Source: an uncultured delta proteobacterium
Lineage (GTDB): Bacteria; Myxococcota_A; Polyangia; Polyangiales; Polyangiaceae
Assembly: GCA_963850305.1 (NCBI GenBank)
Contig: CAWKKR010000008.1
Coordinates: forward strand, 640,001-704,000
Length of the DNA stretch: 64,000 nt
Reading direction: 5' to 3'
In this document: positions 45,870-47,057 of the stretch, one piece after another
Layout of the letters: each line of letters opens with the position of its first letter
Numbering within the stretch: the stretch's first letter is position 1
Translations under genes and position numbers: made by a program
Notes under the pieces: model-generated
Databases searched by the model: none
The model's input: only the letters and a program-made list of their open reading frames with translations
Told to the model about the DNA's origin: nothing

Positions 45870-45983
45870 CTAACCCTGCCGCTGCTTGTGACGGGGGTTT
45901 TCGCAAATCACCCGAACCACGCCGCGGCGGCGAATGACTTTGCACTTCTCGCAGATCTTCTTGACGCTCGGTCGAACTTTCAT
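45870..45983 (-). CDS. rpmJ: 50S ribosomal protein L36 (Zn form)
   Basis: Hand translation: [37 protein letters not shown]. Confidence 0.97.
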
Positions 45984-45996
45984 GACGAATTTTCCG

Positions 45997-46206
45997 CTAC
46001 AACTTCTTGGTGATCTGTCCTCGGGTCGGGTCGTTTCGGAGGGTTCGGACGAGAACCTTGTCTCCCTCGAGCAGTCTCACGATGCCGTGACGCGACTTGG
46101 TGTCGACTCCGGCTCTGAGAACGCGACCATCGGCGAGACGGACGCGATACATCGACTTCGGCAGGACCGCATCGATGACTCCGGGTGATTCTGGTGTGTT
46201 GCTCGT
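45997..46206 (-). CDS. infA: Divergent translation initiation factor IF-1 homolog, apparent ACG start
   Basis: Hand translation: [69 protein letters not shown]. It sits in the canonical adk-infA-rpmJ position, and the SD GAGGAG lies 5 nt before ACG. Confidence 0.75.
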
Positions 46207-46224
46207 CGCTTCTCCTCGTTGGTT

Positions 46225-46848
46225 CTACTTGGCCAGCGCCGCCATCACGCGGCTTGTGACTTCTCGTGGAGTGCCGGTTCCATCGATCCGACGAAGGAGC
46301 CCTGCCGCCTGGTAATGCGGGAGAAGCGCCGCCGTCATCGCCTCGTATTGATCGAGGCGAATGTTCACCTTGTCCTCGCAGTCGTCATTTCGGTGTTCCA
46401 AGACGGCGTCCGCGGGCGGCGGATTGTACTTTAGGTGGTAGATCTGTCCAGTCCGAACGTCGGTCCGACGAAGGGTTGCGCGCTCCACGAGGAGCGAACG
46501 AGGCACGTCGATCTGCACGACGTGGTCGAGCCGTGCGCCCAGCTCCGTGAGCGCGTGATCGAGCGCGTCCGCTTGGGGCACGGTCCGTGGAAATCCATCG
46601 AGAATGAACCCCTGCTGCGCATCCGGTTCCCGGAGCCTCTCCCCGACGAGACCAATGACGACGTTGTCCGGCACCAGTTTTCCCGCTGACATGAACTGAT
46701 CCGCGGCTTTGCCGAGATCGGTTCCTGCTATTCGCGCCGAGCGAAGCATGTCCCCGGTCGAGATGTGAGGGACTCCCAGCCGGTCGACCAGCACCTTCGC
46801 CTGCGTCCCCTTCCCGCTCGCCGGCGGCCCCACCAAAACGATCCTCAT
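46225..46848 (-). CDS. adk: Adenylate kinase
   Basis: GPPASGKGTQ, STGDMLR, LDGFPRT; Cys-free LID. Confidence 0.97.
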   Translation of the reverse strand: MRIVLVGPPASGKGTQAKVLVDRLGVPHISTGDMLRSARIAGTDLGKAADQFMSAGKLVPDNVVIGLVGERLREPDAQQGFILDGFPRTVPQADALDHALTELGARLDHVVQIDVPRSLLVERATLRRTDVRTGQIYHLKYNPPPADAVLEHRNDDCEDKVNIRLDQYEAMTAALLPHYQAAGLLRRIDGTGTPREVTSRVMAALAK

Positions 46849-47057
46849 GGCGCCCAGCCCGGCACTGAACGGATGCAGGGACCAAAGGGGGGCCTTGCCT
46901 CCCGCGGCTCGCTTCGCGACCGCTCCCCCCGCCGCCTTCGGCGGGCTCGCTCCGCTCGCGTAGTTCCGCACCTCTTTGATCCCTCGGTGACGACGTGCAT
47001 CGTCGATGCGGGACTACTCACGTCCCGGTGCGATGCGAAGCGAGCCCCCGCACGACG

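Follow-up and report, generated by a model that had tools for sequence, protein, structure and literature searches.

IF3 and IF1 both act against initiation at non-canonical start codons, and in Escherichia coli the AUU start of pcnB limits dosage. The closest described system is infC of E. coli, which is autoregulated through its AUU or AUC start as described in PMC4705826; that paper also describes eIF1, which begins at an AUG of its own in poor context and whose synthesis tracks stringency. The Hecht preprint (bioRxiv 10.1101/063800) names only infC and pcnB as natural non-canonical starts in E. coli, and reports that non-canonical starts yield 0.01–3% of AUG in that species and that an ACG start gives an N-terminal Met. 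In PMC5499595 a synthetic infA is used as a reporter only. Our search of the open-access literature found no autoregulatory start loop for eIF1A; nor, with subscription journals outside its coverage, did it find a report of infA with an ACG or other non-canonical start, of myxobacterial IF-1 paralogs or of Polyangiaceae infA.

Here we analysed a 64,000-nucleotide stretch of a Polyangiaceae genome (hereafter, the window), in which a divergent IF-1 paralog lies between adk and rpmJ (Table 1). We take the family to be Polyangiaceae because the canonical IF-1 cluster of same-family relatives carries the name Polyangiaceae/Pendulispora in public sources. The apparent ACG start is a real feature and a new form of control through the start codon of an initiation-factor gene. 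Very few of the non-canonical starts that occur naturally in bacteria have been confirmed, and here a putative ACG start occurs lineage-wide on the paralog of a core translation factor. The locus resembles infC autoregulation in combining an initiation-factor gene, a near-cognate start and a strong Shine-Dalgarno (SD) sequence, but it differs in that the gene encodes an IF-1 paralog and is dispensable, the codon is ACG (a second-position mismatch), infC itself starts with ATG, and feedback is only proposed. With the eIF1 loop it shares a fidelity factor that has a suboptimal start of its own; eIF1, however, is a functional analogue of IF3 and uses an AUG in poor context, whereas IF-1 is the orthologue of eIF1A. 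As with E. coli pcnB, a natural non-canonical start is found on a single gene, although the codon is another one and pcnB lies outside the initiation machinery.

Table 1. Features of the adk–rpmJ interval in the window.
Feature	Position	Strand	Remark
Divergent IF-1 paralog gene	45997..46206	minus	69 codons, ACG to TAG; ancestral infA position
Proposed near-cognate start codon ACG	46206-46204	minus	SD-led ACG recurrent in orthologs
Shine-Dalgarno GAGGAG	46217-46212	minus	5-nt spacer to ACG; open A-rich region
IF-1 paralog stop TAG	45999-45997	minus	
Internal ATG (Met19)	46152-46150	minus	gene callers' choice; strand β1 would be cut off
adk, upstream neighbour	46225..46848	minus	stop TAG 46227-46225
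rpmJ (L36), downstream neighbour	45870..45983	minus	ATG at 45983, 13 nt past the IF-1 paralog stop

The initial annotation had picked out this frame as a hidden IF-1 homolog, and its coordinates were borne out on the minus strand. No ATG, GTG or TTG stands in frame ahead of strand β1, and the sole canonical ORF is a truncated one of 51 aa from the ATG at 46152. The ACG-frame product scored 43.3 bits (E 2.8e-11) against PF01176, whose gathering cut-off is 30.2, and all 12 of its PDB sequence matches were IF-1. Its AlphaFold2 model (pLDDT 92.3) is a five-stranded OB fold, for which the best 12 Foldseek matches were all bacterial IF-1 (TM 0.76–0.91), headed by IF-1 of M. tuberculosis (3i4o, TM 0.87) and E. 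coli IF1 in 9fco (TM 0.91). The proposed homology therefore stands, with profile and fold matches far above chance. Against TIGR00008, the infA equivalog, the paralog reached 38.3 bits, below the curated cut-off of 61.15. The conserved motifs SGKMR, YD and GRI are altered as had been described, and AGA and CGA codons are indeed frequent, making up 5 of the 9 Arg codons.

Contact residues were taken from the list in bioRxiv 10.1101/2023.10.27.564398 (T. thermophilus numbering). The window protein has all five helix-44 contacts (P18, R23, R41, R46 and R64), and at the 530-loop/uS12 columns, canonically G38, K39, Y60 and R66, it has T38, K39, N60 and Q66. Across the 69 family orthologs introduced below, P18, R46, R64 and D61 are each retained in 69, R41 in 61 (with K in a further 7) and R23 in 52, and the columns of G38, K39, Y60 and R66 are variable. 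Canonical IF-1 copies keep both the helix-44 and the 530-loop/S12 contact sets. Judged from these columns, the paralog keeps the helix-44 contacts and loses those to the 530 loop and S12; G38, K39, Y60 and R66 are no longer conserved in it, and its binding may be weak. Compared with canonical IF-1 (infA; TIGR00008, PF01176), the paralog shares the OB fold, the adk/rpmJ position and residues P18, R23, R41, R46, D61 and R64, but has lost SGKMR, Y60, R66 and the C-terminal YR, evolves faster, has an apparent non-AUG start and is accompanied by a second IF-1 copy in the genome.

That second copy came to light when a canonical infA was sought elsewhere: the host genome has two PF01176 matches, and the other one, at G000:C11, starts with ATG and passes TIGR00008 with 79.4 bits, which confirms that the adk–rpmJ gene is an IF-1 paralog. 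The ATG-started copy is best read as the housekeeping IF-1. In 17 family members the second copy keeps G38, R39, R41, R46, Y60 and D61 and has G18, T/N/S23, H64 and L66, so that P18, R23 and R64 are missing. It was not found in two paralog-bearing genomes (95% and 77% complete). The second IF-1 of the window genome (L001:1492-1713) is itself unusual in that GGGQY replaces PNAMF, in addition to H64 and L66; its core is 100% identical across seven congeners, it has no evident SD, and IF-1 of this second type appears to be the sole copy in several genomes.

PF01176 was matched in 38 of 41 relatives, and a profile of the divergent copy in 232 of the 251 genomes of the family. Of these 232 matches 150 were listed; the loci used were the divergent copies that scored best, a number of genomes with two copies and, as controls, 20 canonical loci. 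Because best-scoring loci were chosen, the set is skewed to profile-like loci and is not a random sample. IF-1 adjoined adk/rpmJ in 111 genomes: 69 had a divergent copy within the family (21 genera, window genome included), 11 belonged to other families and had a divergent copy, and 31 had canonical IF-1. The 69 divergent family loci group as one clade (support 0.905) in a tree built from the genes next to IF-1; a FastTree analysis of IF-1 itself, with 63 columns only, was weak at deep nodes. Two divergent family loci found later, outside the 69, start with GTG or ATG. A metagenome scan returned eight loci, seven of them canonical IF-1 with ATG and one a clade member with an SD-led ACG, and the contigs of named relatives held only two IF-1 loci, unrelated and canonical. 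One canonical infA (L143, G083) contains an in-frame TAA in an N-terminal extension together with several nearby substitutions, likely an assembly error.

An SD-led ACG was scored where an in-frame ACG lay 3–10 codons ahead of the anchor and its SD duplex reached −5.5 kcal/mol or lower; the GAGGAG of the window gives −8.4 kcal/mol. This arrangement was found in 45 of the 69 family orthologs (16 of 21 genera), including 6/6 same-genus loci, and these counts are given without P values because family loci share kinship and are not independent. ATG, GTG or TTG was available in 10 of the 45 loci, and in the other 35 none was. With all codons counted alike, the runner-up SD-led codon reached 16 loci in 6 genera. 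ACG stood exactly seven codons upstream of the anchor in 30/69 loci, a codon position that in other families is ATG or GTG in 33/55 loci and ACG in 0/55 (21/55 from one family); an NTG codon lay within 20 codons in 54 of these 55. Thr codons at SD-led positions were ACG 50, ACA 7 and ACC 5, and in gene bodies ACC 117, ACG 65, ACT 27 and ACA 23. Four-fold sites are saturated among the 16 ACG genera (33% identical), yet the ACG is retained, so it is not a conserved Thr. A TAA lies immediately 5′ of the ACG in one locus and a TAG one codon 5′ in another. The start region is open and A-rich, with a mean MFE of −5.7 at the ACG, −7.4 at the rpmJ start and −13.7 mid-gene. A crude genome-wide scan with its own coding model (3051 ORFs, the paralog gene itself unlisted) found no SD-led enrichment of ACG (0.98 vs 3.34 for ATG). 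Overall, the ACG is very probably a real and conserved start signal, from which translation would begin. Annotation pipelines miscall the gene: public database proteins read the SD and the ACG as GG[DE]T, and eight of nine database relatives have unrelated upstream starts while the ninth begins at the internal Met.

Ortholog start codons are thus not uniformly ATG or GTG. Among the 24 of 69 orthologs without an SD-led ACG, 20 have NTG, mostly with a weak SD, and 4 have neither, which indicates that the near-cognate start is replaceable. Parsimony counted 13 losses with ACG as the ancestral state and 16 gains otherwise, with an ambiguous root state. Orthologs without ACG often keep a strong SD, and where the start would be expected they have AAG, CCG, GCG or CTG, so that other near-cognate starts may be used there; examples are L074, L076, L083, L087, L088, L115 (genus g44), L072, L090 and L096. 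In one other family, L251 (G270) carries an ACG at position 6 and no ATG, GTG or TTG over 20 codons, and in L237 and L242 an SD-led ACG precedes a GTG; ACG may have come into use independently in these loci.

The initial annotation had also entertained a T-to-C error, which is refuted by the recurrence of the SD-led ACG in these 45 orthologs, the same-genus loci included, across independent assemblies. Among the pieces listed from three DNA contig sets, none from this strain spanned 46205. Together with read-through of the adk stop and a start at the internal ATG, such an error forms an explanation that is largely refuted and highly improbable. The assembly does have at least one private indel (in rpoA), and the paralog is in frame with adk here and in a read-through-compatible arrangement in 19/45 ACG loci; but 24/45 are out of frame with adk, and the segment ahead of the internal Met is under purifying selection (see below). 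The continuity with adk across its TAG, pointed out at the start, holds in register in the window and is not kept in relatives, where the frames divide 21/16/8 among the 45; judged from these frames, it is incidental and due to chance.

C-to-U editing of ACG to AUG is known from plant organelles; we know of no such mRNA editing system in bacteria. Editing would have in ACG the exact substrate it needs, and a small number of orthologs carry GCG or CCG close to where the SD-led codon stands. However, only the SD and A-richness are conserved around the ACG, and unedited ACG initiates in E. coli according to bioRxiv 10.1101/063800, which leaves editing very unlikely. A search for DYW deaminases gave 0 matches, with positive controls likewise unmatched. 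Two further candidates were rejected. Among the tRNAs listed by ARAGORN, tRNA-Thr(CGT) is an ordinary elongator, which speaks against a special initiator tRNA with a CGT anticodon, and at least one initiator tRNA-Met, an ordinary one, is present. The anti-SD of the host genome has the standard sequence, so an altered anti-SD was discarded as the cause of ACG use.

Selection was estimated by the Nei–Gojobori method from 23 disjoint within-genus pairs (adk pS 0.05–0.6, ACG and non-ACG loci pooled). The resulting dN/dS was 0.21 for the paralog core and 0.22 for the 11 codons ahead of the internal Met, against 0.18 in adk, 0.08 in rpmJ and, from 2 pairs only, 0.04 in canonical IF-1. The paralog frame is under purifying selection and does not evolve neutrally, and the same constraint on the codons upstream of Met19 places the start upstream of Met19. 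A decaying copy, among the options listed at the outset, is accordingly unsupported as the main reading, several residues being invariant as well, yet some lineages no longer have the gene. We checked for loss in 20 genomes in which the single IF-1 match resembled the second copy. Nothing like an IF-1 frame separates adk from rpmJ in 9 of them, where the two genes are 24–103 nt apart; five of these belong to the family and four to other families, and one is a single-contig genome. The other 11 comprise 8 without rpsM by the query used, 2 at contig ends and 1 with a cut IF-1 fragment. In 4/9 deletion genomes the remaining copy was seen directly to be of the second type, and in the rest this was judged from scores. 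Clean deletion in 9/20 genomes marks the paralog as accessory and dispensable.

Relaxed selection with drift toward loss, the ACG being a tolerated mutation fixed early, would account for the repeated deletions, for the excess of paralog dN/dS over that of canonical IF-1 (the latter from two pairs) and for a within-genus identity of 71% vs 100% for the housekeeping copy. We consider it unlikely nonetheless: ACG and SD are kept across genera with ~70% adk identity and saturated four-fold sites, P18, R46, D61 and R64 are invariant, and dN/dS is near that of adk.

Median SD energies were −9.5 at ACG loci, −2.95 at NTG loci, −4.1 at canonical infA and −5.6 at rpmJ, and a strong SD paired with ATG or GTG occurred in 0/69 loci. 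This division would be expected if dosage only were selected, with ACG as a weak start that holds a partly competitive accessory paralog at a low level without selected feedback, ATG giving too much and the other one-step neighbours too little. The dispensability of the gene and its low codon bias (GC3 0.70 vs 0.79; CGA+AGA 29% vs 14%) also fit. A weak SD with ATG is, however, normal here in highly expressed genes such as canonical infA and rpmJ, so the NTG paralog loci need not be weakly expressed, and selection on dosage alone would leave the match with an AUG-started infC as a coincidence; we regard this explanation, the main rival, as possible but less likely than not. A role in cis, as a stringency-sensing leader coupled to translation of rpmJ-rpsM-rpsK-rpsD-rpoA-rplQ, would agree with the gap from the stop to rpmJ, which is shorter in paralog loci (median 14 nt) than in canonical ones (34 nt). 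It appears improbable, as rpmJ initiates in an open region that in about half of the loci includes a separate SD, conserved protein-surface residues would be needless for a pure leader, and adk still adjoins rpmJ after deletion.

TIGR00168 was matched in 88 of 91 genomes, and 86 infC loci were parsed from the alignments. Within the family infC starts with ATG in 48/49 loci and with GTG in 1/49, ACG-clade and canonical members alike, and one other family has ATG in 4/4 loci. Nine further families of the order have ATC (29), ATT (2) or ATA (2) at the same position in 33/33 loci, with SD energies of −6.6 or lower. This pattern suggests that classical IF3 autoregulation has been lost in Polyangiaceae and one other family. 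Family infC lacks the pairing of a strong SD with a putative near-cognate start, which the IF-1 paralog of one clade has. In the 19 family members with canonical IF-1 at the locus, and in 4/4 genomes of one other family, infC is AUG-started and no ACG paralog was seen; canonical members thus have neither design, and an infC/IF-1 swap is not obligatory. The infC of the window genome is L157 (G000:C8:778502-778999), the other infC loci being L158-L215 and L281-L310, and second or partial IF3-like genes occur in several genomes (L187, L216, L217 and others).

These observations, together with the kept helix-44 contacts, lend circumstantial support to the infC-like fidelity loop put forward in the initial annotation. 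In such a loop, the ACG would be read as fMet by the initiator tRNA, aided by the strong SD, giving a low level of paralog. Since IF3 and IF1 discriminate against non-canonical starts, output from the SD-led ACG should rise when stringency falls. Because the paralog keeps its helix-44 contacts, we propose that it may bind the 30S A site through A1492/A1493 and helix 44 (R41, R46, R23, R64 and P18) and, once bound, may tighten the subunit-joining checkpoint, which would exert negative feedback on the paralog, infC-like, in a family with AUG infC. The review PMC4611024 states that IF1 controls fidelity at 50S docking with IF3 and that Arg64 of IF1 disrupts the A1413–G1487 pair. A 2026 preprint (10.64898/2026.06.26.734871) reports that IF1 induced no h44 distortion in its 70S complex, which weakens the specific helix-44 mechanism.

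We infer that the paralog binds the 30S and that feedback is what selection has maintained, and give a low-level, stringency-sensitive accessory IF-1 paralog with infC-like feedback on initiation a little under an even chance. More tentatively, in one Polyangiaceae clade a specialised IF-1 paralog may have taken over from infC as the sensor of start-codon fidelity: IF-1 would have divided into a constitutive copy without the R23/R64 contacts and an ACG copy that keeps them, and the latter would be induced when start selection slackens and would restore the subunit-joining checkpoint. The locus is thus a candidate for the shift of a regulatory start codon from one initiation factor to another; if this is true, IF-1 would here have its first fidelity loop, and bacteria their first translation factor with a natural ACG start, as far as the open-access literature shows. 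Between them, the two natural variants of IF-1 set the contacts to helix 44 apart from those to the 530 loop and S12, and this split makes the debated dependence of the IF1 fidelity role on R64 and helix 44 directly testable.

Two further features of the window were recorded. At ~43282 on the minus strand, a short A run has one A too many, which puts the C-terminus of rpoA out of frame and into overlap with rplQ; the rpoA frame is intact in 5/5 congeners, so the shift in the window probably stems from an indel in the assembly. Between secY and adk (~46860-46980), a GC-rich intergenic stretch resembles further sites in the genome and is possibly a dispersed repeat.
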